Origin: Anaerolineales bacterium
Lineage (GTDB): Bacteria; Chloroflexota; Anaerolineae; Anaerolineales; E44-bin32
Length of the DNA stretch: 64,000 nucleotides
Reading direction: 5' to 3'
Assembly: GCA_034430395.1 (NCBI GenBank)
Contig: DAOUEQ010000036.1
Coordinates: 2,116-66,115 of the forward strand
Numbering within the stretch: position 1 is the first letter of the stretch; every line of letters starts with the position of its first letter. The notes below the pieces were generated by a model. It was not told the DNA's origin, made no database searches, and was given only the letters and a program-made list of their open reading frames with translations. A program made the translations under genes and the position numbers. Shown here piece after piece: positions 1,143 to 61,187 of this stretch.

Positions 1143-1154
1143 TGGGGTTCTCCA

Positions 1155-1204: not shown

Positions 1205-1222
1205 GGTTTACAGCCTGAGCGG

Positions 1223-13596: not shown

Positions 13597-13694
13597 TGGA
13601 TTATCTTTGCGGAACGGCTAGGATTGTACCAGCCGCGGCAATGTTCTTGCATCTACGATTGCACCGACGAACCCGTTTCGGTACAATGACTGCC

Positions 13695-42341: not shown

Positions 42342-42435
42342 GTTAATCCAACATCTCCGAAATTCACCTCGTTTGACCCCTCCACAAGCGCCTGATACAA
42401 TCCCGCCGCTACCTACATCTTGCCCAGGAGGATTC

Positions 42436-45091: not shown

Positions 45092-45093
45092 GG

Positions 45094-48045
45094 TTATCCT
45101 CTTTCCTCGTTTATCAGGGGCAACCATACAGTAAATACGCTTCCAATTCCGACATCGCTCTCAACGCCTACAAGACCATTATGCAGATTCACAATCTCCC
45201 GCACAATCGCAAGACCTAAGCCGCTTCCAGGGATCTTGTGCTCCCGTGCCATAGTACCACGATAAAAACGATCAAATAAAAAAGGTTGGTCATCCTCAGA
45301 GATCCCGGCACCATTATCTCGGACTTCCACAGACGCATGAGGAATTCCATCTTTCTCGTCTTCACTGTTGATATTCAGAGAGATCACCCCACCAGGATCG
45401 GTGTAGGTTGTTGCATTCGCGACCAAATTGGTGAAAAGGCGTATCAACTGATCGCGATTCCCCAGAACCATTGCTGAACTCTCGGTTTCACAAGCAAGGT
45501 GTATATCCTTCTCCTCACAAGTGGGGCGATGCCGCTCGACAACCTGATCAAGGATATCCGTGATCTTTACCGGTTCCATCTCGATTTCTTTCTGAGACTC
45601 CAAACGTGAGAGATCCAACAACTCCTCTATCATACTCGTAAGCCGATCCGTCTCCTGGTTGAGCACGCCCAGATACCTCTCTTGATTATCCTGTCTAGAT
45701 CTCTGGAGCAGCGAAAGGTATACCTTGATATTCGCAAGAGGAGTTCGCAATTCATGTGAGACAGTAGCGACGAAATCACTTTTTAACCTATCCAATTCCT
45801 GCAAACGCGTGATATCCCGCAGAATGATCACCGTGCCAATAGAGCCTCCATTTAGTTCAACCGGTGAAGCGAGAGCTTGGAATGATGCCTCGCCGATATC
45901 GAATGATTCTTGAACCCGCCTCTTTGCTTCATGCAGGCGAGAGATATGCGTCAGCACCTCCTCACTCCATTCTCCCGCCATCAGGTTCTGCGCTTGTGGG
46001 TTTGCCATAACCAGGTCCCCAGCAAGATCGAAGACAAGTACGGCGTCCGCAACGGAGCGTAGAATCGCCTCGGTTTGTTCCTTCTGGGACTGCAGCTCGG
46101 CGGTACGGCTTGCGACTCGCTCTTCTAGCGCGGCGGCATGATCATGGATCTCGCCAAAGAGACGGGCATTGACTAACGAGATCGCGATTAAGGAGGTCAG
46201 AACTTGAAGCATCTCCAAATCCTCCTCCCCAAGCTGTCCAACTCCTTCGTTGTCAACAATCATTACCCCAAGGACTTCCCCAGCGATTGAGAGAGGCAAG
46301 ATCAACTCACAGCCTGTGTTGGGAAGTTCGGTCTGGTGTCGAAACCGCGGCTCCTTGCTGACATCCGAAATCAAAAGCGGCTGATCCGTTTGTACAACCT
46401 CTTGAGCCAATCCCGCGGCGTTCAAATCTAGCGGCTCTATCCAATTCACGGGAAGCCCTTCCGGGCCGCGCAAATATGCACATGGGACCAATCCGCCGCT
46501 TTCGTTCAGCAGAATTCCTACGGCATAGTACTTAAAAACTCTCAGTGCACCCGCTGCCACTTCGAGAGCCAGCTGTTGGACATCGAGGATCGAAACCGCA
46601 CGGCGGCCGACCTCATACACCAAGCGCATCTTCTCGGCACGAGCAGTGGAGCTGCGCAGCAAACGGGCGTTCTGTAATGCCACTCCCAATTGTCTGGTAA
46701 AACCAAGCGCAATTTGTAGATGGTACTTCTGAAAGAATCCCTGCACCCTGCTGCCCAGGGCCATCCCCCCGATAATCTCAGACCTCCACAAGATCGGCAC
46801 ACCCAACCAAGATCTGATATCGACTGGATAACGTTCAAAACCAATGAGCAGTGGATCTTCAACTACGCGTAGAAGAATGGGGCGTGCGTCGTAAACCACG
46901 TGCCCCAACGCCGATCGATCAGGCGGAACGACAAGATCACCCACCTGGGGCGCTCCATTTGAGAGGGGGAAACCTCTTACCTGGCGCACTATCAAATCCC
47001 CTTCTTCTTTGAGAATTACACAAGCAGAATCGAAGGGAACTACCGTCTTTAGTAAATCAAGGACTTGATCCTGGATGGTCTCAAAATCGAGTGCCGAGCT
47101 GAGCGCATAAACGACCTGCTGTAAGGCCCGCTTGACGCGCGCATCACGTTGTAAGCGATCCAATGATTCCACTCGAATGAGCTGCGTGCTCAACCTGTTT
47201 GCGAAGGTCTGTAGCATATTTTGGTCATGGAGGGAAAGGGTGTCGGCAACCATCAGGATCCCACACGGCTGCTCTCCCTCCAGGATCGGCAGCATGAATA
47301 GCGCATTCAGATGCAGCCTCTTGACCAAACCCTCGATCTCTGATGCAGTCGCCCAATGAAAAATTGACCGGAGGATTTCCCCGGGGCGATCTGAATAATA
47401 TGAAGAAAGACCGAGGAGCACATCACCAACGGGATGCACGACACTTTCGGGGTCCGGTGCAAGCATTCCAACCTTTTCAACTAGCAAATCAATCTCATGG
47501 TTAATATCTATTGAGTAGCTTGAACCGTGTAAGACCCAATGTCGATCCACCGGATCAATGCTGATATACATCGAACTCAGCCCAAGCCCGCTGAGCAGTT
47601 TGATCGCATGTTCCACGATCATCCGTCGGTGATTTCCCTTATATTGATCAAGATGAATCCGCTCGAGTTCATCCGCTGAACGAGAGATCAAACCCGGTCG
47701 CAGATAGCCCGGAAGATCTTCGAGAAATCGGATAATGCCCGACGTTGTTTTTTTGAAGTACCGGGCAGGGAGTATATCGCCTTCGAGAGGCTGCTCCGCG
47801 AGCAGGAAAAGCTCAGGCCGGTTAGAAATTTCTTGGTAAATAAGTAATACCTGTAGGAGTGTGGGAATGTCGATGGGCAAGCCGAGGATTAAACTATCGA
47901 AAGGGCGCTCGCGCAGGGCTTGCACACAGCTATCAGCGCTCGCCCGAATCACGGCTACATACTCTTCGCAGGATCCCCGAATTGCCTTGCGTAAAAGACG
48001 CCGGCCTTCCGGATCTGGGTCAAAAACCAGCAACCGGAGTTTCAT
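45094..48045 (-). CDS. Large sensor histidine kinase: pseudo-receiver + multiple GAF + PAS + HisKA + HATPase_c
   Basis: 983 aa. The N-terminal receiver-like fold has Gly where the phospho-Asp is expected (FDSLILGLPID). The H-box is SHELRTPL and the G-boxes are DNGAGI / GSGLGLAIV. Confidence 0.85.
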   Translation of the reverse strand: MKLRLLVFDPDPEGRRLLRKAIRGSCEEYVAVIRASADSCVQALRERPFDSLILGLPIDIPTLLQVLLIYQEISNRPELFLLAEQPLEGDILPARYFKKTTSGIIRFLEDLPGYLRPGLISRSADELERIHLDQYKGNHRRMIVEHAIKLLSGLGLSSMYISIDPVDRHWVLHGSSYSIDINHEIDLLVEKVGMLAPDPESVVHPVGDVLLGLSSYYSDRPGEILRSIFHWATASEIEGLVKRLHLNALFMLPILEGEQPCGILMVADTLSLHDQNMLQTFANRLSTQLIRVESLDRLQRDARVKRALQQVVYALSSALDFETIQDQVLDLLKTVVPFDSACVILKEEGDLIVRQVRGFPLSNGAPQVGDLVVPPDRSALGHVVYDARPILLRVVEDPLLIGFERYPVDIRSWLGVPILWRSEIIGGMALGSRVQGFFQKYHLQIALGFTRQLGVALQNARLLRSSTARAEKMRLVYEVGRRAVSILDVQQLALEVAAGALRVFKYYAVGILLNESGGLVPCAYLRGPEGLPVNWIEPLDLNAAGLAQEVVQTDQPLLISDVSKEPRFRHQTELPNTGCELILPLSIAGEVLGVMIVDNEGVGQLGEEDLEMLQVLTSLIAISLVNARLFGEIHDHAAALEERVASRTAELQSQKEQTEAILRSVADAVLVFDLAGDLVMANPQAQNLMAGEWSEEVLTHISRLHEAKRRVQESFDIGEASFQALASPVELNGGSIGTVIILRDITRLQELDRLKSDFVATVSHELRTPLANIKVYLSLLQRSRQDNQERYLGVLNQETDRLTSMIEELLDLSRLESQKEIEMEPVKITDILDQVVERHRPTCEEKDIHLACETESSAMVLGNRDQLIRLFTNLVANATTYTDPGGVISLNINSEDEKDGIPHASVEVRDNGAGISEDDQPFLFDRFYRGTMAREHKIPGSGLGLAIVREIVNLHNGLVGVESDVGIGSVFTVWLPLINEERG

Positions 48046-48089
48046 CAGTGCTCTCCGTCCCTAACTGTGCGACGAATGCAATCGGAAGG

Positions 48090-49415
48090 CTAAGCTGACC
48101 GTGGGGCTGTAAGCAGTTTATAGCCGCGACCCCGTCGTGTAATTAAATAAATTGGATCGGTGGGGTTGGGTTCAATCTTACCTCGCAGGCGGCTGATCAG
48201 TTTCTCAACACGAGCGTCATCAACGCTCCCGAGGTAATCCTCCCCCCATACCGCAGTTACGATCTGGAATTTATCCGTTAGCTTATCCCGCCGCTTATAA
48301 AGGAGATCCAATAACCGATACTCTAAGTCCGTGAGAACTGGGATTCGAACGCCATCAACCCATACATCGCCGGAATCAGTGTCGAGAAAAACCCCGCGCT
48401 CCTCTACATCATGTCCTCGGCTCTTCCTGGCGATGAAATCGGCAAAGATCGGTGAGAATGGTCGGTTGGCAACGAGCATGCCCAGGGAGTCTAAATGGCG
48501 CATTTGGTGCTGGGGTAAACCAGCTTTTGGTTCGAGCACCAGTGAGGATAAACCGGCTCGTTCCTCCCCATTGAGCTGATGCCACAGCTTCATGCACTCC
48601 GCGCGTGGCTGGGCCTCGAGCCGAACATAATCCGCAGAATCCCCTTCCCAATCCTTTGGTAGATGGGCAAGAGCTTGGGACACTGCCACCAGCATCCCCG
48701 GGTGCCCACCCCCCAACTCAAACGCCTTTTCCTTAAATTCCTTCTTCAGATCGCGGAGATTTAAAGCTTCAAGCAGCACGTGAGACTCTGCACTACTTAG
48801 CAGCGGCATGTTGTAGGTGAAACGGGAAAAGAGTTCAGCGAATTCATCCTCAAAGGCGTCACCGCGCAATTCCGGCAAGCTGCGCCGTGTGGCTGTCGCA
48901 TAAACAAGACGATCACGAAAGCGGTCACGAAGTGCTCGCAAGTTCAGGAGCGCTCGGTTTTCCAACGCTGTGTAGATCTCGTCGAACTCATCAAACAGCA
49001 GACATAGATTTTGATCCAGTTCCTTGCAGAGTTCCGAAAGGGCGAGGTTGAAAGAGAGCGAAGCAGTGAAAGATGAATCCGCCTCTGTAATTGTCTGGTG
49101 GTACACCCTCAAATTTGTTAATAGGGCGGTAGGGATTTCTTCAGCAAGGCGCTCCAGTGTTGACCGCAGAACGACCTCATAAAATGCCTGACCCGAAATT
49201 GCGACTGCCCGGTTGCAGTCGATATATATTAAGAAACCGGACTGACCGGCTTTCGACCGATAGAACTTTTTTGCACTCTGGTCCGCCAGCGAGCGCATTA
49301 AATTGGATTTTCCGCTGTTGCTTAAACCAGCGATCGAGACACAGTGGCCCGCAGCAAGTTCAGTTAGCGCAATTTCGGTGAGGGAAGAAAAAGGAGTGAC
49401 TTTCTTGGCCATCAT
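48090..49415 (-). CDS. P-loop ATPase fused to a C-terminal OmpR/PhoB-type winged-helix DNA-binding domain
   Basis: 441 aa with Walker A GLSNSGKSNLMRSL and Walker B-like CLLFDEFDE. The C-terminus LEYRLLDLLYKRRDKLTDKFQIVTAVWGEDY...RVEKLISRLRGKIE...ITRRGRGYKL is a trans_reg_C signature. Confidence 0.75.
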   Translation of the reverse strand: MMAKKVTPFSSLTEIALTELAAGHCVSIAGLSNSGKSNLMRSLADQSAKKFYRSKAGQSGFLIYIDCNRAVAISGQAFYEVVLRSTLERLAEEIPTALLTNLRVYHQTITEADSSFTASLSFNLALSELCKELDQNLCLLFDEFDEIYTALENRALLNLRALRDRFRDRLVYATATRRSLPELRGDAFEDEFAELFSRFTYNMPLLSSAESHVLLEALNLRDLKKEFKEKAFELGGGHPGMLVAVSQALAHLPKDWEGDSADYVRLEAQPRAECMKLWHQLNGEERAGLSSLVLEPKAGLPQHQMRHLDSLGMLVANRPFSPIFADFIARKSRGHDVEERGVFLDTDSGDVWVDGVRIPVLTDLEYRLLDLLYKRRDKLTDKFQIVTAVWGEDYLGSVDDARVEKLISRLRGKIEPNPTDPIYLITRRGRGYKLLTAPRSA

Positions 49416-49502
49416 ACCTCCACATACAAAGGCAGGGTCAACATCAGGCTGACCCTGCCACCGGTAGTTCGGTTGTCAAGCAGGCGATTAATAAAGCTGC
49501 TA

Positions 49503-50057
49503 TCAAGTAGTGACACGAGTCCGCAGACTGCGTGCGATGAATATTAAAGCCAGGAGCAGTCCACCCGCTAGAGCTATGGCTGGAATTCCGACTTCATCAG
49601 CGAACCCGGTTGCAGGAAGAGCCGTCGGCGTCGGCGTTCCTCCACCGCCTCCCTGCGCTGCTGCCAGAGTCAGCTGAGCCGCAGCCGTTGCTGTCTCCGG
49701 TGCTAAAGTAGGCAAGGTCAGGAACGGTGTCGGTGTGTCCGTTGGGAGGACAACCACCAGCGTGGGTGTCACCGTCGCTGTTGCATCCGGCAGTTCAGTC
49801 TCCGTCGGTGTGCGTGTCGGCGTTTTTTCAAGGACGACAGCAGTCTGGGTTAACGCTTCCTCAGTATTCTGTTGTTGGACAAGCACCACCTCAGTGGCGC
49901 GGGCTTCTTGCTGCCGCGGTGCCAGTACCAAAGCATAAACCAACAGACAGATCATGCTCAGAACCAGCAAGCCGCCCAGCGAGACAGCTGCGATCACGAA
50001 AGTCCGATTAGATGACTCTTCGGGCAGTGGACCGCCTACATCAAAATCTTCTGCCAT
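49503..50057 (-). CDS. Thr/Pro-rich surface protein with N-terminal TM/signal anchor and C-terminal LPXTG-type sorting signal
   Basis: 184 aa. The C-terminus has LPATG, then the hydrophobic IPAIALAGGLLLALIFIA, then the basic tail RSLRTR. Confidence 0.65.
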   Translation of the reverse strand: MAEDFDVGGPLPEESSNRTFVIAAVSLGGLLVLSMICLLVYALVLAPRQQEARATEVVLVQQQNTEEALTQTAVVLEKTPTRTPTETELPDATATVTPTLVVVLPTDTPTPFLTLPTLAPETATAAAQLTLAAAQGGGGGTPTPTALPATGFADEVGIPAIALAGGLLLALIFIARSLRTRVTT

Positions 50058-50093
50058 GGTCTCTACTCCTCAGCTTTTATATGCCTGCTCGAA

Positions 50094-51176
50094 TCACTGC
50101 AGTATCTCGATATTCGCCAGCGGAACTGTTTTGGTTCCAATCCCGTCAATTTCTATTATTGCGCTCTTAGCTCGGATGCCGCTAGGGTAGGTCTCCACGC
50201 GTTTAAGTATCTCCTTAACCACGGCGACTTCCCCAAGATAGGGCGGCTTTAAAACCCGGACTCGCACCCCAGGTTTCAACGTTACAACCCGATCAGGATG
50301 AGTCACTTGACGACTGGATGGCTGAGGGATGATTACCTCCGGACGCTGTCCAGGTTGCGGCCAAGCAGAGCCTGCATCCACCGCGACCTCACGCCCCACA
50401 TTGCTAATAAAAAGATTAAACGCGGCTGCATTAATGGGATGATCCCCGAACCCCTCGGTGAGCAGAACCGGATAAGGCAACCTGCGTGCAACCGGGATCA
50501 ATTCAGATGACATTCCACCCAGGATCACCCCGCGAACAGAGAGCTCAGTCGCCTGATGAAACGGCGCCGGATGATCACACATCCCCGCAACCAGAACTGC
50601 CCCGCGCAGATTAATATCCAACTGATCTGTCTGCAGGCGAGAGGATGGGCCATCGCCCACCAAACGCATGACGCCGAAGTTCTGCAATCCATTACCCCAT
50701 ACGCCTTGGATCAAGGTACCTATTGTTTCAATCGTTACAACCTGTGCCCCATCCGATGAGATGACCTTTCCGGGGAAGCCGGCCTTTATCTGCAACACTT
50801 GGCCATAGGTTTCCAGGAGAACTCGCCCGCTGTTTATCGACGCGATGCGACCTGATGCTGGGGCACGCACTGTTCTACGTGGTACTCCCGCCGGTCCCGC
50901 GAGCACATCACCGGTTTCTACTCGATCCCCCTTATGGCAGGTAATATAGCGTCCTGCATCTTTCGCCGAGACACCCAATCCGCGGACAACATCGAGGTAA
51001 TAGTGCTTCGGATCGATTTCAGCTTCGGCGACGATGTCGGTTGCCTGAAGGCGTTCGTTAACACGCACTAATACCGCCCCCGGCACTGGAAGAACACGCT
51101 CGCGGCGGATAACTGTAATAGGGATGACGTGCGTCATCGAAGATAAGAATAATTCGCTCATGCTATGAGCCACCAA
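50094..51176 (-). CDS. Hypothetical protein with barrel-sandwich-hybrid (lipoyl/HlyD-like) motif
   Basis: 360 aa with the KGDRVETGDVLAG hairpin motif and a C-terminal KOW/SH3-like stretch VRVLKPPYLGEVAVVKEI. I do not recognise a family. Confidence 0.6.
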   Translation of the reverse strand: MVAHSMSELFLSSMTHVIPITVIRRERVLPVPGAVLVRVNERLQATDIVAEAEIDPKHYYLDVVRGLGVSAKDAGRYITCHKGDRVETGDVLAGPAGVPRRTVRAPASGRIASINSGRVLLETYGQVLQIKAGFPGKVISSDGAQVVTIETIGTLIQGVWGNGLQNFGVMRLVGDGPSSRLQTDQLDINLRGAVLVAGMCDHPAPFHQATELSVRGVILGGMSSELIPVARRLPYPVLLTEGFGDHPINAAAFNLFISNVGREVAVDAGSAWPQPGQRPEVIIPQPSSRQVTHPDRVVTLKPGVRVRVLKPPYLGEVAVVKEILKRVETYPSGIRAKSAIIEIDGIGTKTVPLANIEILQ

Positions 51177-51206
51177 GCATGAGGATGCAAGAATGGTGCC
51201 AATACT

Positions 51207-52967
51207 TCATTCCCTAGCTCCAATATCATGCAACCACTTCTTGTTCAACTCGCGGCGACGGCCAGGATCCTTCCCAAGCACAAGCGGTCGCCCACGCGCG
51301 TCGATGATCAAACCAACGGCCCCACCCGCAATGCGCAGTGCTCCTGCTTTCCCGGGTCCTCCGAAGCCGACATCGATCCCGCGTTCAGGTCTGAGCGTAA
51401 GGTGAGCATGCTCACCTTGCCGGATGGGCACAATTGCGAGCTGACCCATTCGAACCTCGCCGACAACGTCCTCACTACTTTGCTCGAGTTCGAGGTGCAG
51501 ACTGAGAATCTTGCGTCCCATCCGGGCATTCCCGACTGGCGACACAACTGTCCCCAGGCTCACGAAGCTTCCGGATTCTAAAACATGTACACTCAGCATT
51601 GGGACCGAGCCTGACGCGGCGCCAAGCGATGGGGAGAGTCCGTGCGGATCTAGCACAAGCGTTGTGATCCCTGTTGGCTCTAAGGCGTCCAACAATGTTA
51701 ATGCAGCATATCCTGGTCGAGGAGCTCTTGCCAAGACACTCCCACTGGCGATAACCGGTTCCACAGGAGGCATTAGCCAAGTTGATTTGAGATCTTTGCC
51801 CTTGGGCCAGCGCTTGCGAGCGCGTTTCAGTGATAGCCGCAGAATCTCACGCGCCAATGCTAATTCTAGAAGAAGATCATCATCTTCGGTAGGAACAGTT
51901 CCCGGGTTAATCGATTTGTTATAGATGTAATCCAAGATCATTCGCTCCGACGTCTCGGATGGCAGCCAACGGGCAATATCGTTGAGACTGCAATGCCGGA
52001 GCAGAGTCGGCAAGGGTTCCCCTAATCCCAAGTCTGTTTCAACACTCAAGCGCAGATCTCCCTCGAATGCTGCAGCGATCATCGTATTGTTTGCGCCTAC
52101 ATCCACACCAAGAACACCCTTCGCCGGGTCGTAGATGCGGCTCAAATAGCGGATCACCCTACCGTACGCGTCAGCAGTGAGCATCATGGTGCCGCCAGAC
52201 CATTGTTCCAATTCATCAAAACCGCGCACCCGTTTATTACGCGCCTCGGCGATCGCCTCTCCGAGCGCCAGACGGGCATGCCCCAGATCCTCCACACGGA
52301 GACTGGGTCTAACATTCGGTGCAAGAGCGATATCGACCCGTTCTCCCACGCGGTCGGCGATCGCGGCGCCCAGATTGCGGTTGCCTGCATATACGATCCG
52401 TGGTCGTTGATTCGGGGGGAAAAGGTCGCTGGCTACAGCGACGAATTCGATTAATTGCAGAACGGAATCCTGCGCGCCGCCATCCGTCCCGCCAACAACG
52501 AGGATCAAGTCCGGGCGGGTGGATAAGATAAGATCAATTTTTTCCGATTCGCGTCGACTATCCAGCAGGTCAATGACACCCACAAGGTCTAAATATGTCG
52601 AATCGGCGAGTCGCAATGCGCTGTCTGTTGAAACTCCCGGCATCAGACCCACAAGTACCGTTCGGACCTTCGGTCCCGCTGAAGCCGTCGCAACGAAAGT
52701 ATCTACACCCGATCCCTGGCTGGTGACGGGCATGATCAGCAAGTCCGTTTCGTCGAGCAATTTCCTTCCTGTAACGGCCAGCACCTGGTCGAGAGCCATT
52801 CGAACACCCTCGCTAATATCGAACAAAGGTGCTTTTGCAGTTGACGGTGCTCGACCAGAAGCGATCAGACGAAAGTGGCCGTCGACGACATCGAATAGGC
52901 TGGCGCGCGTGCTCACGCTGCCCACATCGACAGCCAATATGGTATCGGCATCCATTATCGTACTCAT
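51207..52967 (-). CDS. Actin-fold (ASKHA) ATPase resembling glutamate-mutase accessory protein GlmL/MutL
   Basis: 586 aa with phosphate-1 motif ILAVDVGSVSTRASLFD, the second-lobe motif LVVGGTDGG and later VLGVDVGANNT. Confidence 0.65.
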   Translation of the reverse strand: MSTIMDADTILAVDVGSVSTRASLFDVVDGHFRLIASGRAPSTAKAPLFDISEGVRMALDQVLAVTGRKLLDETDLLIMPVTSQGSGVDTFVATASAGPKVRTVLVGLMPGVSTDSALRLADSTYLDLVGVIDLLDSRRESEKIDLILSTRPDLILVVGGTDGGAQDSVLQLIEFVAVASDLFPPNQRPRIVYAGNRNLGAAIADRVGERVDIALAPNVRPSLRVEDLGHARLALGEAIAEARNKRVRGFDELEQWSGGTMMLTADAYGRVIRYLSRIYDPAKGVLGVDVGANNTMIAAAFEGDLRLSVETDLGLGEPLPTLLRHCSLNDIARWLPSETSERMILDYIYNKSINPGTVPTEDDDLLLELALAREILRLSLKRARKRWPKGKDLKSTWLMPPVEPVIASGSVLARAPRPGYAALTLLDALEPTGITTLVLDPHGLSPSLGAASGSVPMLSVHVLESGSFVSLGTVVSPVGNARMGRKILSLHLELEQSSEDVVGEVRMGQLAIVPIRQGEHAHLTLRPERGIDVGFGGPGKAGALRIAGGAVGLIIDARGRPLVLGKDPGRRRELNKKWLHDIGARE

Positions 52968-52974
52968 AGGCTTC

Positions 52975-53700
52975 TCATGTCCCGCCCACTATTTGGGTAA
53001 GCACATCGTGAAGAAATTGAAATCGCTGCGCCAACACGACAATCGTTGCCATCAGCGCACCAGCATACATCACTCCGAAAGTCACGGCGATGAAGATCTG
53101 ACCAAGATAAGCAAATATTTCAGCAATGCGTGATCGCCGTGCCCCCCCTGTCAGCTCCCGCTGGGCGCTGAAGCGGAAATATATCAATACACTGATTGTC
53201 GCCAGGATCAATACCAACGCGCTGATGAGGTTTTCCAACCATATAGATAGTGGTTCGCCTGAGGTGGTAAAGACGATTTCTTGTGACAGCGTTTCGGCTG
53301 CGGCCCTACTCTGCGGTATCAATGTGCCCGTGATGCTTCCGCCTACAACGACTGCTGCGCCTACACCAACAAGAAGCGCAACCGGTAAACTCCCGAATCG
53401 CGACAGCCGGGGAGAGAGCTTTAATAGCAGAAACAGCACAAGCATCCACGGAATCAGGAATGTAACGGCTCCCTCACGCGAAAACAGACTGACAAGTTCC
53501 TTGTCAATGAGCGGTTGAACAAGTGTGGGTTTTACAACATTAGCCCAGGCGATGGCGCCGGCGAAGCCAGAAGCGATCCCGATGAATAGATATGTCGCAA
53601 TCCGGAAGAGGACATTGTCACCTATCACGTAGCTCAAGATCATCACTGTGACGAATGCAGCAACGATCATTTCGATGAAGTCGAGCGGTAACTCGGGCAT
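52975..53700 (-). CDS. Integral membrane protein (about 7 helices), unknown family
   Basis: 241 aa, uniformly hydrophobic, 7 nt upstream of the ATPase gene. Confidence 0.6.
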   Translation of the reverse strand: MPELPLDFIEMIVAAFVTVMILSYVIGDNVLFRIATYLFIGIASGFAGAIAWANVVKPTLVQPLIDKELVSLFSREGAVTFLIPWMLVLFLLLKLSPRLSRFGSLPVALLVGVGAAVVVGGSITGTLIPQSRAAAETLSQEIVFTTSGEPLSIWLENLISALVLILATISVLIYFRFSAQRELTGGARRSRIAEIFAYLGQIFIAVTFGVMYAGALMATIVVLAQRFQFLHDVLTQIVGGT

Positions 53701-53717
53701 CTAATTTATGTCTCTCC

Positions 53718-55832
53718 TCAACGCTCTCGCAATCTCAAGAGCCACAAACCAACTCCATAGGCTCCGCCCGCGATCAAGATTAATTCAACGGCCAACATCC
53801 CTAGCCCAAAAGCATCCCATTGCACACTTGTATCAAGCGGTAGCCCGCTGTACTGCCGATACGATACGGCTGCCGGTAATCCGGTAAGGATTCCATCCAC
53901 CCTTTTCTCGGAGGCTTCAAAGTAAGGGCGCACAAGCGGTTCCGCTCCAGCGCTCAACACCATCACCAGAGGAGTATCCCCTATCCAGGGGTGGGTCTGT
54001 TCCGCCCAGGTACGTGCTGTATCTGTTCCTGCCGTTATCACGATGACCAGATTGAAATCCGATAGCTGCTGCACACCCTGGAGCAAAGGCGATCCCCAAA
54101 CTGATCCTTCAGAAAGTGACTCGGGAAGATGGTACCCGGATAAAACAACGTTGCGTGGGGCAATCGCAAATAGCTGAACCGCAGTCGGTCCTCCGGAGAG
54201 ATACCCCAGGTGCAGGTAGCTCTCACCATTTACCGCACCGTAATCGGCGCCAATTTGGTTTAGCAACCCCTCCGCCAGTGGTGGTCCCGTTGGGCGGGTC
54301 GAAACGGTTACGATTGGGAGTGAGCGCATTACCGCATGCTCAAGCAAAGCGCCGGCGACAGTATTAAGTTCACCGCTGTAACCGGGTGTGTAATCGAACA
54401 CAACCAGAGCTGGGCGGTCCGCAGGGATGCTGCCGACAAGGTTGAGTAGGTCGCTGAAGTCGGGCGAGACCGCGCTTGGGAGGGCATAACCTTCAACACC
54501 AAGCTGATTGAAACCAAAAGGCAGAATCACAGCGAGAAGCAGGATGAGAGCTATCGCCCAACGCATGAGAGGCAGCCTGCGTCGTTCTGCCTTCACAGGC
54601 GGGATCTCCTTCTCCTCTTCTTCGACAAGACGCTGTAATAGTTCGGCTTGCGCGTATTGACGTTCAGTAACATCCAGTCGAGCTGCTGCAGTGCTCGCTG
54701 TTCGCGGCATGGCGACAACTGGCTCGGCCATTAATACTCCGCGCAATCCAGCAAGCGGTCCCGCTGATTCAACCGGCTGCACTTCCACTGATTCGATCTC
54801 GACCTCTGAACGGAAAGTGTCAACTGGCCGCATAGCTTCAAGCCAGGATGGAAGTGTCGCCGGTGCCAGGTCAGCCGCATCGTCTTCCTCTTGGACCGCT
54901 TGCGGAGTCGATGGTTTCAGTTCCCCCAGCCAATCGGGAAGCTCGATTGAATCCATATCCAAACCAGTAATTTCGGTAAAGGCTTTCTCCTCAGTTTCTC
55001 CGTCGAGCAACGCGGGTACATGAGGGAGACCTTCCGCATCCAGCAATTCGCGCTCGTCGGGGGCAGGGAACCATTCCATCTCCTCCTCAGGAAGTATGGG
55101 TTCACCTACAGCGGGCTGGAAATCATCGTCGATACCCTCAGGTGAGGGCGCGATGTCACCCGCATCGTATGAGGGTATAGGTTTCTCTTGCACCATCTCG
55201 CCTTGAGGTGTCGGAGCGGGCACATCTGGCGGCGGACCAAGATCCAATGCTTGTGGCGCTGGTTGTTCTGTTAATTCCTCAACATCTGGAGAAGGCCTGA
55301 GATCTTCTACTCCGGTTGGCTGCTCAGTGGGCGCTTCATCCCGTAAGCGCGTGATCCAATCTTCATCCTCGCCTGCCCCGGGTTGGGCGTCCGTCTGAAC
55401 TTCCCTTCGAGCTCTAACCCGCGAAAGCCATTCCGGAACTTCTTCCTCCTCAGTAACATCATCGCCAGCGGCTAAGAAATCCTCCATCCAGTCGGGAATT
55501 TCTTCTGTAGGTGGCCCTTCATCGATACTCGAATCAGCCTCTCGCAGCCTTCCCAACCAGTCTGGTGCGGCCTCATCCGGTTCATCCGTCTCCGCTGCAT
55601 TATCTTCCGCTCCTGAGCCCATGATTGCCCCGGCGCGAATGTTCGCCAGCCAATCATCCCCATCGCTGGGCACATCTGATTCCGCAGGTTTAATCCCCTC
55701 CACACCAGATGCCTGTTGATCTGCAGGCGGCATACCAGAGACAAGCGGCGTCAGGCGCGCTTCACAATTGCTGCAGACTTCCGCAGTTTCTGGATTCATG
55801 GTGCTGCACATGGGGCAGCGGATTTCAGCCAT
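53718..55832 (-). CDS. Zinc-ribbon protein with seven acidic (P/D)(D/E/S)W(L/M/I) repeats, one TM helix and a large extracytoplasmic domain
   Basis: 704 aa with the N-terminus CPMCSTMNPETAEVCSNCEARL. The repeats are DDWLANIR, PDWLGRLR, PDWMEDFL, PEWLSRVR, EDWITRLR, PDWLGELK and PSWLEAMR. The TM segment is WAIALILLLAVILPF. Confidence 0.7.
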   Translation of the reverse strand: MAEIRCPMCSTMNPETAEVCSNCEARLTPLVSGMPPADQQASGVEGIKPAESDVPSDGDDWLANIRAGAIMGSGAEDNAAETDEPDEAAPDWLGRLREADSSIDEGPPTEEIPDWMEDFLAAGDDVTEEEEVPEWLSRVRARREVQTDAQPGAGEDEDWITRLRDEAPTEQPTGVEDLRPSPDVEELTEQPAPQALDLGPPPDVPAPTPQGEMVQEKPIPSYDAGDIAPSPEGIDDDFQPAVGEPILPEEEMEWFPAPDERELLDAEGLPHVPALLDGETEEKAFTEITGLDMDSIELPDWLGELKPSTPQAVQEEDDAADLAPATLPSWLEAMRPVDTFRSEVEIESVEVQPVESAGPLAGLRGVLMAEPVVAMPRTASTAAARLDVTERQYAQAELLQRLVEEEEKEIPPVKAERRRLPLMRWAIALILLLAVILPFGFNQLGVEGYALPSAVSPDFSDLLNLVGSIPADRPALVVFDYTPGYSGELNTVAGALLEHAVMRSLPIVTVSTRPTGPPLAEGLLNQIGADYGAVNGESYLHLGYLSGGPTAVQLFAIAPRNVVLSGYHLPESLSEGSVWGSPLLQGVQQLSDFNLVIVITAGTDTARTWAEQTHPWIGDTPLVMVLSAGAEPLVRPYFEASEKRVDGILTGLPAAVSYRQYSGLPLDTSVQWDAFGLGMLAVELILIAGGAYGVGLWLLRLRER

Positions 55833-55835
55833 GCA

Positions 55836-56498
55836 TTATTCCCCGTATGGCCGGTCAACGGCCAGTAAAACACGGAGGCCCGTCACAATGGATCCCAGGG
55901 CTACTCCAAGGAGGATGCCGCGGGCGCCTCCGGCAGCAGCCACCTGCACCAGCCAGTTTCTTAGACCAGCGAAGAAACCGAAGAACAGACTCTCCGTAGA
56001 TATTATGCCTGGTCCGGAACCGATCAACACGAGCAGCGCGGTTCCAACGAATACGAGACTTATGAGATCTCTTCGCTGCGCCACCAGGCGAAAACCAGCA
56101 AGCGACAACGTGATCGCCAGCAAGGCGCTCAGGCTTGTCTCAACAGGCAGCTGGATGGAGTTGAAGAGAAATAGGACCGCACGACTGTCGGGTCCGAAGA
56201 CCAGCCCTAGAATGAGTGTGACCACAAAGGTTACGATCAGTACCGCACTGTACTTCCATCCAGTTTCCTGCTTACTGATCTTTGTCCAGTGGACCAGAAA
56301 TAAATTATACAGACCGATTCCTAGAGAGACTGCCGCCAGCAGAACTGCCCAACGCATGATTAACAGGCGTAATTCAAAAATGTTTCGGACAAGTCCATCC
56401 GCGGGGATTTGATCGAGCTGGACGAAGTAACCCAACAGGACGATGATCCCGGTACCGACGGCCATCGCCGCCCATAATAAATAGGTTCCGATCTTCAA
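55836..56498 (-). CDS. Integral membrane protein (about 6 helices), unknown family
   Basis: 220 aa. A TTG start overlaps the upstream stop (TTGA). Confidence 0.55.
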   Translation of the reverse strand: MKIGTYLLWAAMAVGTGIIVLLGYFVQLDQIPADGLVRNIFELRLLIMRWAVLLAAVSLGIGLYNLFLVHWTKISKQETGWKYSAVLIVTFVVTLILGLVFGPDSRAVLFLFNSIQLPVETSLSALLAITLSLAGFRLVAQRRDLISLVFVGTALLVLIGSGPGIISTESLFFGFFAGLRNWLVQVAAAGGARGILLGVALGSIVTGLRVLLAVDRPYGE

Positions 56499-57244
56499 AA
56501 GCTCACTCCCAGAAGGCTTAGGACAGCACCGATAACGATCCCCGTAATAATGAGCATCCGGACAGCATCCTGCACTCTCAAACTAGCCCTGTGGACTCGG
56601 CCCACATTCAGGTACGCTCCGCCGGCAAAGATTTCCTCACCGATCAAGGGATGCTCAGCAGTCGCATAAAGCAGGGCTTGTGACTGTGCATCATCCGTCC
56701 CCGCTAAGACAAAAGACCCCTGGCGCTCGCCGAAATCGGCCGCCAATGCCCCTTCTGCCCCGAAGGAGCCTGCCAGAACGTGGACTGAGATATCCTCGCT
56801 AGCTAGAAGAATCGGCAAATTGGCAACATATGAAAAGGGTGTGGGTCCTAACATTCGCCCAGAGATGGGGCTATACCGGGACAAGGCTCTAGCCTCGGTA
56901 TACACCCTCCGCAAAGTATCCTGCGCAAGGATCGCCATCGCCCCATCCCCCGTAGTGGCGACAACAGGTTTATCACTCATCGTCGTCGTCTCAGCGATGC
57001 TCGTCAGAATGGCCAGCCCCGCCAGCGCAGGCGCGCTATCTGTCCCGATAACCGATCCTGTTCCTAGCGATAGGTGAACTCGCTCCCCAGCTTCGACCGC
57101 ACGCTCGATCACTCCCTTTAGAGCTTCATAGCCCCTGATGGGCCTGAACGTCGCAGGTCGCCGGCGATCGATGGTCACGAAGAACACCAGAAGACCGACG
57201 AACAACAGTAATATAAAGAGACCGATTTGATCCACTCCGCCCAT
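56495..57244 (-). CDS. Bitopic or two-anchor membrane protein with a soluble central domain, unknown family
   Basis: 249 aa with the N-terminal helix IGLFILLLFVGLLVFFV and the C-terminal helix MLIITGIVIGAVLSLLGV. The ATG overlaps the upstream stop (TAATG). Confidence 0.6.
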   Translation of the reverse strand: MGGVDQIGLFILLLFVGLLVFFVTIDRRRPATFRPIRGYEALKGVIERAVEAGERVHLSLGTGSVIGTDSAPALAGLAILTSIAETTTMSDKPVVATTGDGAMAILAQDTLRRVYTEARALSRYSPISGRMLGPTPFSYVANLPILLASEDISVHVLAGSFGAEGALAADFGERQGSFVLAGTDDAQSQALLYATAEHPLIGEEIFAGGAYLNVGRVHRASLRVQDAVRMLIITGIVIGAVLSLLGVSF

Positions 57245-57435
57245 TATGTATCATCCTTCTTCCTGAGCATCACAATCAGTTCCGAGACGGCATCCGGGTC
57301 TTCCAGTATTTTGCCAAATTCATTCCATGTTCCAGTGGGACCGCCCACGATGGGGTCGATTAAATAAGCCGCTTGAGCGCCCAATGGCAGGATCGGTCCG
57401 CCAGCATCGAGAAAGGCGGCAACAATGCCTCCCAT
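57244..57435 (-). CDS. Small protein (63 aa), first gene of the operon
   Basis: The sequence is MGGIVAAFLDAGGPILPLGAQAAYLIDPIVGG...LRKKDDT. The longer ORF-track version (to 57531) would run into the divergent promoter region. Confidence 0.45.
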   Translation of the reverse strand: MGGIVAAFLDAGGPILPLGAQAAYLIDPIVGGPTGTWNEFGKILEDPDAVSELIVMLRKKDDT

Positions 57436-57614
57436 ACCAGATCGACGAATTAATCGAGCTAGTCTTCGCTGCACCTTAAAAAACCCTCCATCGCCGCGCA
57501 GTATAGCATATCCAGCGCGCGCCGGATACAACCGTGCGCCCCAATACAGAGAGGGGAGAGAAGCCTTACTGGCCGATTGTAGACCGCGGTATTATGCGGG
57601 TCAAGCGGGCGAGA

Positions 57615-57658
57615 TTGCACGCGCTGGGTCTTAGACTATAATTACGAACAGTTGTTCG
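57615..57658 (+). promoter_or_regulatory. nurA promoter TTGCAC-16-TATAAT with a perfect LexA (Cheo) box CGAACAGTTGTTCG over the predicted transcription start
   Basis: The hexamers are at 57615-57620 and 57637-57642, the palindrome at 57645-57658 and the ATG at 57672. Confidence 0.7.
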
Positions 57659-57671
57659 AGAGACAAACACT

Positions 57672-58856
57672 ATGGGAATCCATCTACCATCCTTACTTCC
57701 ACAAATGCAAGAGCTCGGTCAATCCCTCTATGAGCGAAGCCTGCAGTTGTCCAAGATGGTCCCCAAAGCCATTGAAGCCCTGCATGTCACGGCCGATCTC
57801 GATCACTCCGATCTTCAATCCAGAATTATGAAGGCGGGAAATCGCTGGACTGGTGCAATTCCCACCGAAGAAGCGCTCGATCAGACGTTCCCGCCGCCTA
57901 AAGCCCCACAGAGTCTCCACGTGATCGGCGCCGATGGCTCACAGATATATCCGGATCGCCACGCATCAGCGTTCTATTATTTAATCAACATAGGCAGCAT
58001 CGTCGTCTCACGCGGCAACGGCGAAACTCCCACTATCCAGCAGGAATCTCGGCTCTTTTTTGAACTCGAAGACCTTTACGGCGAAGCTGATTATCCCATC
58101 CAGAATGCTTATGTTAATCTGCGGCGTGATGTCGCCGAGATGAAGATCCTCACAGAACGGGCTGAAACCCTGGCTGGCGAGAAGACTCTTGCCATTCTGG
58201 ACAACAGTCTTCTATTGTGGATGGCGCTGCAAACTGGCGGGTCAGCATCTCGGGAGACGGATCGTTACCTCCAGCAGTATCTAAAACTGCTCGATCGTTT
58301 GCACTCCTCGGAGACAGGCCTTGCAGGTTTCATCGACCGCCCGCGGAGTGTAAGCGTGCTTGCCTTGATCCACCTTGCTGGGTTACCAGGCGATCAGATT
58401 ACTCAGGATTCTGTACACCTGACACCCTTCCGCGGTCTAACTGATCGGGCAATTTTCACCCATTTGCTACCACCCGGTCATCGCAGCGCGATTTTCATCT
58501 CAGCGTCACCGTTAAATAGCGACTTCCGCACGGCCGGTCACGAAATCCATTTCTTCTATCTGAAGACTGCCGCTGATGACACGGTTGTGCGAGTCGAAAT
58601 CCCGATCTGGGTCGCACAAGACCCTGAGCTGCTCAATCGTGTTCATGCCGGTATTTTGCAGGATTGCCAGACGACAGGAGGGTTCCCCTATACATTGGTG
58701 CGAGCCCATGAATTGGCGGTTATCCCTCCGCAAGAGCGAGCTGCTTTCGATGATATGCTGCAACGCACGCTCATCGGACACGGTCTGCGCCCTTCACAAT
58801 CTCAAAAAGCACTCACAAAAGAGCTCACCGGAAAGCGGAAACACTATCGGTTATAA
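57672..58856 (+). CDS. nurA: NurA-domain 5'-3' nuclease
   Basis: 394 aa. The motif HVIGADGSQIYPD matches the N-terminal catalytic Asp (xDGS) of NurA. Gene order with a HerA-type ATPase supports the call. Confidence 0.7.
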   Translation: MGIHLPSLLPQMQELGQSLYERSLQLSKMVPKAIEALHVTADLDHSDLQSRIMKAGNRWTGAIPTEEALDQTFPPPKAPQSLHVIGADGSQIYPDRHASAFYYLINIGSIVVSRGNGETPTIQQESRLFFELEDLYGEADYPIQNAYVNLRRDVAEMKILTERAETLAGEKTLAILDNSLLLWMALQTGGSASRETDRYLQQYLKLLDRLHSSETGLAGFIDRPRSVSVLALIHLAGLPGDQITQDSVHLTPFRGLTDRAIFTHLLPPGHRSAIFISASPLNSDFRTAGHEIHFFYLKTAADDTVVRVEIPIWVAQDPELLNRVHAGILQDCQTTGGFPYTLVRAHELAVIPPQERAAFDDMLQRTLIGHGLRPSQSQKALTKELTGKRKHYRL

Positions 58857-58867
58857 CAGGAGGATTG

Positions 58868-59470
58868 ATGCCGGAATCGCCGATGATGATCGGACGCGTG
58901 ACACGCTGCAGCACACGTGGTTTCGTGGGCGCTATGCAGGTATCCGTGAAAGAGGTCCCCGTGTTCGGCTCTTTTTGCCAGGCGGAAGCTCAAAGCGGGC
59001 GCAGTCACGTTGTAGGGCTGGTGTATGACATCAGCATCACGGATGACCACTTCGCTCGGCAAATAGCTGCTCTCGAAGATGTTCCCCAAGAACAAATCGC
59101 GGATGGGCAGATCAACCGCCAGGTTCCCATTGAATTTAACGCTCTGGCCGTCGGCTTCCGCGATGATGCGGGATTTCACCAAGCCCTGCCCCCGCGCCCC
59201 CCTCTTACACTGGCCTCGGTCTTCAGCATGGCGCCCAAAGACACAGTTGATTTCACATCAGAGCTTCATTTTCTACAGACGATTCTGAACGCGCCTCAAC
59301 TCCCTGTCGACGAACTTCTAGCAACCACCTTGCGGTTGTCCGCGCAGATAAGGCCTGAGGGGGAACGCGAGCGGTTTCTACTTCAAGCTGGCCGCGAAAT
59401 CGCCCGCTTGCTCGCCCAAGACCTAACTCGGTTGGAGAACATCCTGCGTGGTCTGCGCTCAGAGGGATGA
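58868..59470 (+). CDS. Hypothetical 200-aa protein between nurA and herA (possible HAS-barrel-like N-terminus)
   Basis: AGGAGG lies 5 nt upstream of the ATG at 58868. The N-terminal MIGRVTRCSTRGFVGAM...HVVGLVYDISI resembles the N-terminal barrel pattern of the downstream HerA (LGIVLEGSLSTGLQVKL...IFFGIITDIAL). Confidence 0.6.
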   Translation: MPESPMMIGRVTRCSTRGFVGAMQVSVKEVPVFGSFCQAEAQSGRSHVVGLVYDISITDDHFARQIAALEDVPQEQIADGQINRQVPIEFNALAVGFRDDAGFHQALPPRPPLTLASVFSMAPKDTVDFTSELHFLQTILNAPQLPVDELLATTLRLSAQIRPEGERERFLLQAGREIARLLAQDLTRLENILRGLRSEG

Positions 59471-59525
59471 ACGATGGTTGACCGCTTACCCCCAACCAGT
59501 GATACTAAGCTCAAGAGGACAATAA

Positions 59526-61187
59526 ATGTCAGACTCATCTGAACTTGACGTTTTTTTCGGTTCCAAACGAGATGAACGCCCTCTGGGGATTGTCCTGGAG
59601 GGATCGCTTTCCACCGGCCTGCAGGTTAAATTAGACCCGCGATATGCAATCGAAAAACTCGCCGTAGGAAGATATGTCGTCATCCAGAGCCGAAAAACCG
59701 GCAGCATTTTCTTCGGGATCATCACCGATATCGCTCTCGGAGCGACCACGCCTGATCTGCTACATCATCCACCCGATGCCTCGGATCCATTCCTGCTCGA
59801 TGTGTATTCCGGCGGGGTGGCCTTCGCCACGCTGCACGTCAGCCCGATGTTAATGCTCGATGATGCGGACGATCAACCCCGCCCCATAAAGACGATTCCC
59901 TCACATTTCTCGGCCATCTATGAGGCAACGGCGCAGGATGTCGCCCGTGTATTCGGAGAGGAGGACGAGGCGCACTTCTTCATCGGAGCACCGCTGGATA
60001 TGGAGGCCGTTCAGGTCAACCTCGATCTAGAAAGGTTCGTTGAGCGCTCATCTGGAGTGTTTGGAAAGACGGGCACAGGAAAATCGTTCATCACACGCAC
60101 GATCCTCGCCGGCATCATACGCTCAGGCCTGGCATCGACGCTGATTTTCGACATGCATAACGATTACGGATGGTCGGTTATGGACGAGACCGGCCGAGAG
60201 TATAAAGGATTGAGGCAGCTCTTTCCAGATGGACGTGTTAGTGTGATCACACTTGATGAGACAACCTCGCGCGCCCGAGGTAGCAAGTTCGATGGGATCC
60301 TTACCATCGGTTATGAGGAGATCGAGCCTGAAGACATGGAAATGTTGGCATCCTTGCTCGGGTTGAGTGACATTCAAACCGGCGCGCTCTACTTCCTTTA
60401 CCAACGTTTAGGCAGGAAATGGATCTCGAAATTACTGGATGAACAGCACGAGGAAGAGATTCAGAATATGCTCGATAGCGGTCGCATTGTGGGAGGAACG
60501 CTGGGAGCGATCCGGCGCAAGCTCGAATCCTTCATCCCTCGCATGGGATTTCTCGTACCCGGTGAGGGGTCAAAGGTGGTCGATGATATCTTCCAACGAC
60601 TCAACATTGGAACGAGCGTTGTCCTTGAGTTCGGAAATTACGGAAACACTTTGGCCGCCTACGTGTTGGTCGCCAATTACCTCACCCGACGTATCCATGC
60701 AAGCTACGTCCATCGTAAAAACATTGCTGCCGGGAAGAAAGGCGAAGAGCCCCGCCCACTCGTGATCGTGATCGAGGAGGCGCATAAATTCCTCGACCCA
60801 AGCGTCGCCGGGCATACGATCTTCGGTAACATCGCCCGGGAGCTGCGTAAATACAACGTGACCTTGCTGATCGTCGATCAGCGGCCGAGCGGCATCGAAG
60901 ATGAGGTGATGAGCCAGATCGGGACTCGGGTGACCTGTTTGCTCGATAATGAAGCCGACATTCGGGCTGTTTTCTCGGGTGTAAGCGGAGCAAGCACTCT
61001 ACGCGAGGTGCTCGCCCGCCTTGACACCCGTCAACAGGCACTCATTCTGGGTCACGCCGTTCCTATGCCCGTAGTCGTCCGCACTCGAGATTACGATCAG
61101 CGTTTCTACGCTGCGATTGGCATGGACGAATCCGATGATGCCTCGGGGGCAAAGCCACCCGCAGAGGACAAACTTTTCCCGGATTGA
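59526..61187 (+). CDS. herA: HerA-like hexameric ATPase/translocase (DUF87 type)
   Basis: 553 aa with an N-terminal barrel, Walker A GVFGKTGTGKSF, Walker B LVIVIEEAHKFL and the later LLIVDQRPS. Confidence 0.8.
   Translation: MSDSSELDVFFGSKRDERPLGIVLEGSLSTGLQVKLDPRYAIEKLAVGRYVVIQSRKTGSIFFGIITDIALGATTPDLLHHPPDASDPFLLDVYSGGVAFATLHVSPMLMLDDADDQPRPIKTIPSHFSAIYEATAQDVARVFGEEDEAHFFIGAPLDMEAVQVNLDLERFVERSSGVFGKTGTGKSFITRTILAGIIRSGLASTLIFDMHNDYGWSVMDETGREYKGLRQLFPDGRVSVITLDETTSRARGSKFDGILTIGYEEIEPEDMEMLASLLGLSDIQTGALYFLYQRLGRKWISKLLDEQHEEEIQNMLDSGRIVGGTLGAIRRKLESFIPRMGFLVPGEGSKVVDDIFQRLNIGTSVVLEFGNYGNTLAAYVLVANYLTRRIHASYVHRKNIAAGKKGEEPRPLVIVIEEAHKFLDPSVAGHTIFGNIARELRKYNVTLLIVDQRPSGIEDEVMSQIGTRVTCLLDNEADIRAVFSGVSGASTLREVLARLDTRQQALILGHAVPMPVVVRTRDYDQRFYAAIGMDESDDASGAKPPAEDKLFPD

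Follow-up and report, generated by a model that had tools for sequence, protein, structure and literature searches.

Introduction

Several described bacterial systems join an ATPase inside the cell to proteins of the membrane. In PilM-PilN-PilO, FtsA-FtsN and MreB-RodZ-MreCD an actin-fold protein works with bitopic or polytopic partners and docks on the cytoplasmic tails of the bitopic ones, within an assembly that spans the envelope. In FtsEX and in MacB-type mechanotransmission a cytoplasmic ATPase acts with membrane proteins that carry an extracytoplasmic domain, and ATP drives movement outward. The GlmL/MutL accessory proteins are ASKHA proteins encoded between the subunits of glutamate or methylaspartate mutase, and so far they have been discussed only as helpers of B12 mutases. 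Sortase substrates have a C-terminal LPXTG that is followed by a hydrophobic helix and then by basic residues. Here we analyze a 64,000-nt stretch of DNA from an Anaerolineales bacterium (contig DAOUEQ010000036.1; "the window" below means this whole stretch), in which elements reminiscent of all these systems are encoded side by side in one operon of eight genes, g1 to g8. We tentatively propose that g1-g8 encode an envelope-spanning complex that is moored to peptidoglycan via the LPxTG protein g8 and driven or organized by the GlmL/MutL-family ATPase g6. Anaerolineae are a filamentous class, and the role of such a complex would be envelope maintenance or morphogenesis in filamentous bacteria.

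Gene order and boundaries of the operon

All eight genes are read from the minus strand. The small gene g1 (57244-57474) shares a 1-nt TAATG overlap with g2 (56495-57244; 249 aa, DUF6754), and the TTG start of g3 (55836-56498; 220 aa, six predicted helices) overlaps the g2 stop by 4 nt (TTGA). Gaps of 3, 17 and 7 nt lead from g3 to g4 (53718-55832; a 704-aa bitopic scaffold protein), from g4 to g5 (52975-53700; 241 aa, six predicted helices) and from g5 to g6 (51207-52967; 586 aa). A gap of 30 nt then precedes the TTG 51176 start of g7 (50094-51161 when read from ATG 51161). These seven minus-strand open reading frames (ORFs) and their junctions are exactly as given in a first-pass annotation of this DNA, which proposed a seven-gene operon. 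The tight, conserved unit stands, but it is one gene too short: g8 (49503-50057; 184 aa, an LPxTG sortase-signal protein) belongs to it too. This gene is co-oriented, lies 36 nt downstream of g7 behind its own GAGGAG ribosome-binding site and is conserved as strongly as the other genes.

Two starts differ from those first assigned. The 63-aa g1 product from ATG 57435 is too short for the orthologue alignment, where a conserved LRxxGL...GPLxxLGAQxxYLxxPL core begins upstream of this codon. The gene more likely begins at GTG 57474, as judged from this alignment; the product is then 76 aa long, and GGAGGG stands 9 nt upstream. A further alternative, TTG 57531, would give 95 aa. For g7, most orthologues are 355 aa long, so that by comparison ATG 51161 is a likelier start than TTG 51176, from which a 360-aa product had been read.

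A promoter-like TTGACC-17-TACAAT (57576-57604, minus strand) lies upstream of g1. It agrees with the consensus at 10/12 positions and is the best match in 47900-57800; it is no more than a pattern match, and shuffled sequence yields just as many such sites overall. At the other end, between g8 and the next gene, g9, there is a terminator-like hairpin with a 12-bp stem (49431-49459, minus strand; z = -3.4 vs shuffles). It is suggestive only, because its U-tract is weak. This sole strong terminator-like hairpin of the strand sits 3' of g8, not of g7. The genes g1-g8 form one tightly packed operon, with which the promoter and terminator consensus matches agree, although they do not prove it.

Conservation of the gene cluster

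Relatives of g6 were sought in GTDB, one genome per species, with two narrow g6 peptide patterns, and the best 80 of 371 stretches were inspected. At least 371 species representatives contain such relatives, and all 80 inspected loci carry the operon. These 80 best loci are Anaerolineae-type with two exceptions, a 2-kb contig from a Gemmatimonadales bin and a locus labelled just 'uncultured bacterium'. An assembly of Anaerolinea thermophila is among them, with a g6 46% identical to that of the window, and two Anaerolineales metagenome-assembled genomes are 95% identical to the window. ORFs were then called per locus and matched to the window proteins in 81 distinct loci. The genes g2-g8 are complete and in order in 65 of these, and the other 16 are broken by contig ends; three seeming changes of order are artefacts of over-extended ORFs. 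A homologue of the small g1 was found in 58 ORFs. Neighborhood comparison across Chloroflexota bears the operon out: the g1-g8 order is kept in every locus long enough to judge. With 81 related loci, this arrangement is far beyond chance.

Identity in g6 runs from 45 to 95% across the inspected loci. At the far end it is ~45-48% for g6, 41-48% for g2, 40-53% for g3, 35-43% for g5, 36-43% for g7, 33-49% for g8 and 30-38% for g4. The whole cluster also occurs in four remote loci (L083, L084, L085 and L086), where g2 is ~31% identical, and the named remote members of the g2 family are all from Chloroflexota or Anaerolineae. The operon looks vertically inherited and appears to be specific to Anaerolineae-type Chloroflexota; the named sources are all Chloroflexota or Anaerolineae. 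The flanking genes vary between clades, and the conserved unit is therefore g1-g8. Because co-occurrence is strictly conserved, we argue that the products act together, and the conservation of g6 and the operon suggests an important, probably housekeeping role.

A few loci show local irregularities. In L086 (16467-19850) g6 and g7 are separated by an insertion that comprises the gene of an 896-aa RHS-repeat protein and a small ORF. There g6 is truncated at 535 aa and g7 resumes past the RHS insertion, while the cluster is otherwise intact. In L001, L083 and others, g6, g7 or g9 is split into two ORFs (g6 of L083 into 364 + 206 aa); these splits are probably assembly frameshift errors and not real pseudogenes.

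The GlmL/MutL-family ATPase g6

The g6 protein matches the Pfam family MutL (PF13941) with an E-value of 5e-58 and 197.4 bits against a gathering threshold of 27. The match covers aa 10-464 and model positions 1-447 of 450, so the entire model is shared with GlmL, as are the ASKHA phosphate-binding motifs. The phosphate-1 motif (DxGxxxT; D14, G16 and T20) and the phosphate-2 motif GGTDGG (159-164) are invariant in 13 sequences. Past the point where the Pfam model stops, g6 has an extra, conserved C-terminal domain of ~120 aa (aa 465-586; 51210-51575, minus strand), much of which is invariant. GlmL itself is not so built, and g6 falls far under the cut-offs for it: 76.7 vs 475 bits for the NCBIfam GlmL equivalog NF040745 and 55.2 vs 204 bits for the subfamily TIGR01319. 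Also unlike GlmL, g6 lacks a mutase partner; its operon is fixed, and its companions there are membrane proteins. There are 1221 homologues of g6 at E <= 1e-5. The best 120 homologue clusters are 60-95% identical and nearly all ~586 aa long, and the named ones come from Anaerolineales or Chloroflexota. No solved structure was detectable by PDB sequence-profile search.

Membership in PF13941 brings up the role presumed for GlmL, that of a helper or reactivase for a B12-dependent mutase, with the membrane proteins either handling corrinoid or being unrelated neighbors. A B12-binding protein and MeaB do stand beside the cluster in four distant loci (L072, L075, L078 and L080). However, these are 4 of >80 loci, and elsewhere NurA/HerA, PFOR or other genes take their place. 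Among the scanned ORFs of at least 200 aa in the window there is no mutase or B12-binding family, in line with the first-pass annotation, which had placed the GlmL-like protein outside its glutamate mutase context. Together with the 76.7-bit score, the extra domain and the membrane proteins as fixed partners, this makes a B12 helper highly improbable.

The same annotation called g6 an actin-like ATPase. This holds at the level of the superfamily fold, but not further: MutL is the sole Pfam family matched at E <= 0.1, and no filament-former family (MreB, FtsA, ParM, MamK) is found. We therefore consider it quite unlikely that g6 is cytoskeletal and polymerizes as these proteins do, with the membrane proteins anchoring filaments, for example for division or at the septa of multicellular filaments. 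The ASKHA (actin) fold, the identity of at least 60% among all 120 listed homologues, the operon partners that tie g6 to the membrane and the filamentous habit of the host class would all suit a filament. Against it, besides the missing filament-former match, stands the position of PF13941, which Pfam places close to the hydantoinase branch.

The LPxTG protein g8

In g8 an acidic N-terminal region with the motif PEESSNRTF leads into an anchor helix; a spacer rich in Pro and Thr separates this helix from LPATG, behind which come a second helix and a tail rich in Arg. The PEESSNRTF motif (49998-50024, minus strand) lies in a 26-aa acidic region that precedes the first helix, which looks like a signal anchor; by prediction the motif is cytoplasmic. 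The LPATG sequence (49605-49619, minus strand) and what follows it are, as predicted from sequence, a textbook sortase sorting signal. Residues N17, F20, P148, G151, R176 and R179 are invariant in g8, and L147 and T150 are kept at >=90%. The sorting-signal pattern occurs in 76/77 orthologues, and no locus that extends to this position lacks g8. Even the remote loci L083 and L084 retain the NRTF motif and an L/IPxTG signal.

At its C-terminus g8 resembles known sortase substrates, with LPxTG followed by a hydrophobic helix and then by basic residues. Unlike the usual ones, it has an apparent stable anchor and a conserved N-terminal motif, and its body is a low-complexity spacer. After sorting, g8 would be fixed at both ends, in the membrane and in the wall, and in this too it differs from typical substrates. 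The N-terminus is comparable to that of PilN, where a short conserved cytoplasmic peptide also lies beside the anchor helix. The first-pass annotation had suggested a membrane complex. It did not include g8, and with this LPxTG protein the proposed complex would become a membrane-to-cell-wall assembly.

In L083 (7166-9668) a sortase (TLISC catalytic motif, sortase_fam 81 bits vs 39) and a PIG-L/LmbE-type deacetylase are encoded just upstream of the cluster, the sortase gene at 2 kb. The organism of the window makes peptidoglycan, since it has a gene for a class B penicillin-binding protein (19387-21657). In L084 (18377-20503) the g8 counterpart has 708 aa, with the same NRTF anchor and an IPATG signal, and contains a large extra outward-facing region with no Pfam match.

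The bitopic scaffold g4

The architecture of g4 is conserved although its length spans 599-1571 aa. The protein begins with a zinc ribbon, CPMC...CSNC (aa 6-23; 55764-55817, minus strand), which gives weak Pfam zinc-ribbon matches; the CxxC...CxxC pattern is present in 68/74 orthologues. It continues into an acidic, proline-rich cytoplasmic arm (54570-55715, minus strand), defined by charge count and motif consensus. Residues 1-421 include 102 D/E vs 29 K/R. The arm of the window protein holds eight tryptophan motifs, at W61, 92, 115, 135, 159, 254, 301 and 330. From 204 motifs in 16 orthologues the consensus of this PDWL repeat is [ED]-[LVI]-P-D-W-L-x-x-[LIM]-R. The length of the arm varies among orthologues (330-1290 aa), and so does the number of motif copies (2-16). 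Within the window the motif is clustered only in g4, with one lone pattern match outside the cluster, at 41533 on the minus strand. The kind of motif is thus conserved and the number variable, which fits a multivalent linear-motif scaffold. An adaptor arm of zinc ribbon and acidic repeats had been suggested in the first-pass annotation; the ribbon, the acidic region and the repeats are all conserved, and an adaptor role would fit them.

Two helices (422-440 and 670-688) bracket the rest of g4, a Rossmann-like alpha/beta domain (aa 441-669; 53826-54512, minus strand) that had gone unremarked. An AlphaFold model of aa 401-704 has six parallel strands, with a predicted local distance difference test score (pLDDT) of 85.9 and a predicted template-modelling score of 0.80. 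Foldseek comparison of this model with the PDB gives generic Rossmann matches only (TM-score <=0.33), and a PDB sequence-profile search with the C-terminal region gave nothing meaningful. By the positive-inside rule the domain is predicted to face outside.

Two apparent fusions of the g4 C-terminal region were considered as informative and rejected, P0255 (with an RnfA-like N-terminus, PF02508) and P0327 (with Asd). We take both as probable assembly chimeras, because their contigs are 1-2 kb long and essential parts of g4 are replaced.

The order of zinc ribbon, helix and ectodomain in g4 is also what a transmembrane sensor might have. In such a signalling system g4 would sense the outside and pass the signal inward via its zinc ribbon and its acidic arm, in the manner of zinc-finger anti-sigma factors, with the regulator g9 as output. 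In 57 loci a regulator of the g9 type adjoins the cluster, and in the window g9 is followed by two histidine kinase genes. However, most of the distant loci have no g9, whereas g1-g8 are always kept. The kinase genes are inserted between g9 and a phosphohexomutase gene that in L002 directly follows g9. Eight conserved genes including an ATPase also far exceed what a sensor needs, and we regard this explanation as very unlikely.

Small and membrane proteins g1, g2, g3 and g5

Transmembrane helix prediction gives 2, 6, 2 and 6 helices for g2, g3, g4 and g5, and the four products first described as membrane proteins are indeed so predicted. The g2 protein matches DUF6754 (PF20539; 1e-30, 107.3 bits vs a gathering threshold of 27) over model positions 12-250 of 257. 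Its helices (aa 7-25 and 224-242) enclose a domain of ~200 aa, which is predicted to be cytoplasmic because positive charges flank it. The family comprises 1530 clusters (50% identity, E <= 1e-3), nearly all of ~250 aa; PDB sequence-profile search with g2 gave nothing meaningful. For g3 and g5 there is no Pfam or NCBIfam match, nor any PDB sequence match even at E <= 10, and g1 matches no Pfam family. Paralogy within the operon was tried and rejected for g2 against the C-terminal region of g4, for g3 against g5 and for all other pairs, those with the C-terminal domain of g6 among them (profile-profile probabilities <=2%). By these comparisons the eight families are unrelated to one another.

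The operon combines a cytoplasmic ATPase with two six-helix proteins and with two others that have one helix at either terminus, and these could also make up a new transporter or exporter. The pathway would be formed by g3 and g5, with g2 and g4 as accessory proteins arranged like CbiN or NikL of ECF-type (energy-coupling factor) transporters, and g6 would be the energizer in place of an ABC ATPase. As the sole secreted-type product, g8 would be the exported substrate or an outer adaptor, but its low-complexity spacer is no typical cargo. One g4-type fragment bears a Joint Genome Institute name for a cobalt-transport binding protein; this is 1/87 matches and is unsupported. No member of the operon matches transporter families in Pfam, NCBIfam or PDB sequences, and we know of no ASKHA ATPase that energizes a transporter. 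A transporter is thus unlikely.

The soluble protein g7

The g7 protein has no predicted membrane helix and is rich in beta strands. In 22/28 orthologues it matches the RnfC_N barrel-sandwich domain, in every case below threshold where the score was seen; the window protein reaches 19.9 bits, and the Pfam threshold is 25.6. The C-terminus matches KOW in 10/28 orthologues. In an AlphaFold model (pLDDT 71.5) the N-terminal half is rich in beta structure; a small alpha/beta domain follows, then a disordered linker and finally a KOW/SH3-like barrel. Foldseek matches this model in separate domains only, the KOW of Spt5/NusG and the barrel-sandwich of BesA and RnfC. The barrel-sandwich call of the first-pass annotation is borne out by these matches. 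A PDB profile match of g7 to the wall-binding repeats of Cpl-7 lysozyme (E = 4e-7) was rejected as chance, because one weak match (0.18, a single repeat) was counted three times, and on predicted beta strands. CW_7 repeats are helical.

The weak but consistent resemblance of the g7 N-terminal domain to the barrel-sandwich hybrid domain of RnfC and NqrA, with RnfC chains found by Foldseek, could point to a degenerate Rnf/Nqr relative. In that case g7 would correspond to RnfC/NqrA, and g3 and g5 to RnfA/E or NqrD/E, which likewise have six helices and ~220-240 aa. However, the Pfam scores are sub-threshold, and the Pfam scan of g7 returned neither Fer4 nor Complex1_51K. Cofactor-binding domains, be it for Fe-S, FMN or NADH, were not detected; in this g7 differs from RnfC/NqrA, as it does in ending with a KOW/SH3-like domain. 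There are no Rnf/Nqr membrane subunits either: g3 and g5 show no match to PF02508 or to Rnf/Nqr chains of the PDB, and they are not paralogues of each other. The one PF02508 fusion (P0255) looks like the assembly chimera described above. A relationship to Rnf/Nqr is hardly credible.

Proposed envelope-spanning complex

We return to the envelope-spanning complex. Its basis, shown above, is the order and conservation of the genes, the domains and motifs of their products and the topology predicted for them. By this topology the g4 Rossmann-like domain and the g8 spacer lie outside the cell, and the g2 domain, the g4 arm, g6, g7 and the g8 N-terminus inside. The products would associate physically as follows. 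Inside the cell, g6 and its soluble partner g7 would dock on a membrane platform of g1, g2, g3 and g5. The g4 protein would bridge the membrane, with the PDWL copies on its arm recruiting several copies of a partner (g6, g7 or both) and its Rossmann-like domain held on the outer face between the two helices. The g8 protein would keep its NRTF peptide in the cytoplasm, cross the membrane and end in LPxTG, and a sortase would process this signal and link it covalently to peptidoglycan. Binding or hydrolysis of ATP by g6 may assemble the complex or drive a conformational change; energy coupling would then run from the cytoplasm to the outer face. As a result, cytoplasm and membrane would be coupled to the wall.

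The tight or overlapping junctions, the full synteny, the invariant g6 motifs and the invariant g8 LPxTG argue for this complex. The sortase of L083, the recurrent envelope-related neighbors and peptidoglycan synthesis are weak supporting hints. Several points weigh against it. That the products interact is our inference. A sortase was found near the cluster (within 10 kb) in 1/84 loci checked and none was found in the window, and the long acidic N-terminal region of g8 looks unlike a classical cleavable signal peptide. No component has a recognizable wall-acting catalytic domain, and the outer domain of g4 is a generic Rossmann only. The envelope-related neighbors are convergent to the cluster or clade-specific, and therefore their association is weak evidence. 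Finally, we know of no demonstrated biochemical activity of the GlmL family from which to extrapolate.

The likeness to PilM-PilN-PilO, FtsA-FtsN and MreB-RodZ-MreCD is in logic only: g6 has no sequence relationship to PilM, FtsA or MreB, and its operon partners belong to unrelated families. Compared with FtsEX and MacB, the ATPase is ASKHA, not ABC. No FtsX/MacB fold or sequence and no hydrolase partner was detected. The stronger claim, a previously unrecognized Anaerolineae-type machine in which a GlmL-type ASKHA ATPase works on a platform covalently moored by a dedicated sortase substrate, is possible but rather doubtful.

Relation to known systems

Pfam families cover two of the eight products, g6 (PF13941) and g2 (DUF6754). 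With six products outside any described family, the operon also offers new folds and motifs in compact form, the PDWL repeat above all. The first-pass annotation could name no pathway, and profile searches assign the set to no known pathway or defence system. An anti-phage defence function is unlikely: PADLOC-DB 2.0 models, scanned against g2-g7, match none of them, and inheritance looks vertical. Among the neighbors, the same database gives a strong match for HerA and a weak one for g9. No system known so far has the same composition as this operon, no whole-protein match to a solved structure was found, and no paper matching the operon or mentioning DUF6754, PF13941 or TIGR01319 was found in a literature search. 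We rate the operon as new as a system; this newness is inferred and rests on absent matches.

Anaerolineae are abundant in sediments, soils and wastewater reactors, and their envelope and filament biology is almost unstudied. If the complex exists as proposed, a dedicated LPxTG tether that couples an ATPase to peptidoglycan would be a new kind of link between membrane and wall. In function such a machine would correspond to Tol-Pal, FtsEX or the elongasome, but its parts would be entirely different. GlmL-type ASKHA proteins would gain a wider mechanical or organizing function, and the GlmL family would have its first cellular role that does not involve B12 enzymes. The idea can be tested, since a close relative, Anaerolinea thermophila, is in culture.

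Neighboring genes and other features of the window

Downstream of g8 lies g9 (48090-49415, minus strand), a STAND-type NTPase with an OmpR-type winged helix (AAA_16 and Trans_reg_C). It is a candidate regulator outside the core. Regulators of this type often occur in 2-3 tandem copies (L032, L034, L035, L042 and L057), and sometimes upstream instead of downstream. With its absence from most of the distant loci, g9 is a frequent but dispensable neighbor. Further downstream a phosphohexomutase is encoded convergently (42373-43893, plus strand), and g9 and the two histidine kinase genes (43949-48045) separate it from the cluster. Its best match is to archaeal-type GlmM, below the cut-off. A GlmM-like phosphohexomutase gene lies downstream of the cluster, and convergent to it, in 53 loci; this covers most lineages, remote ones among them (L083, 18018-19478). 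Together with a DUF389 protein that has a bacterial SH3 domain and with PIG-L, it makes up the envelope-related recurrent neighbors. In ~10 loci (as in L035, 13598-14833) a eukaryote-like small GTPase of the Ras family (PF00071, 2e-48, 167 aa) is convergent after g8, and ~6 of these loci also hold a 243-aa protein without a family.

Upstream of the cluster and divergent from it, NurA (394 aa), a 201-aa protein and HerA (553 aa) are encoded at 57672-61187 on the plus strand. The 201-aa protein has no Pfam or NCBIfam match. This trio takes the same position in ~30 closer loci and not in distant ones; other clades have PFOR, or Prs-GNAT-MeaB-B12-binding, or sortase and PIG-L. The B12-binding protein (148 aa) and the MeaB GTPase are divergent beside g1 in L075 (3484-4940) and also in L072, L078 and L080, and this pairing is limited to one Anaerolinea-like subclade.

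Elsewhere in the window, a Pfam scan at E <= 1e-4 assigned no family to three long ORFs, of 739 aa (13596-15815, plus strand), 342 aa (17417-18445, minus strand) and 316 aa (3163-4113, minus strand). At the start of the window (75-2685, plus strand), genes for a Rep_trans replication initiator and a tyrosine integrase suggest an integrated mobile element.

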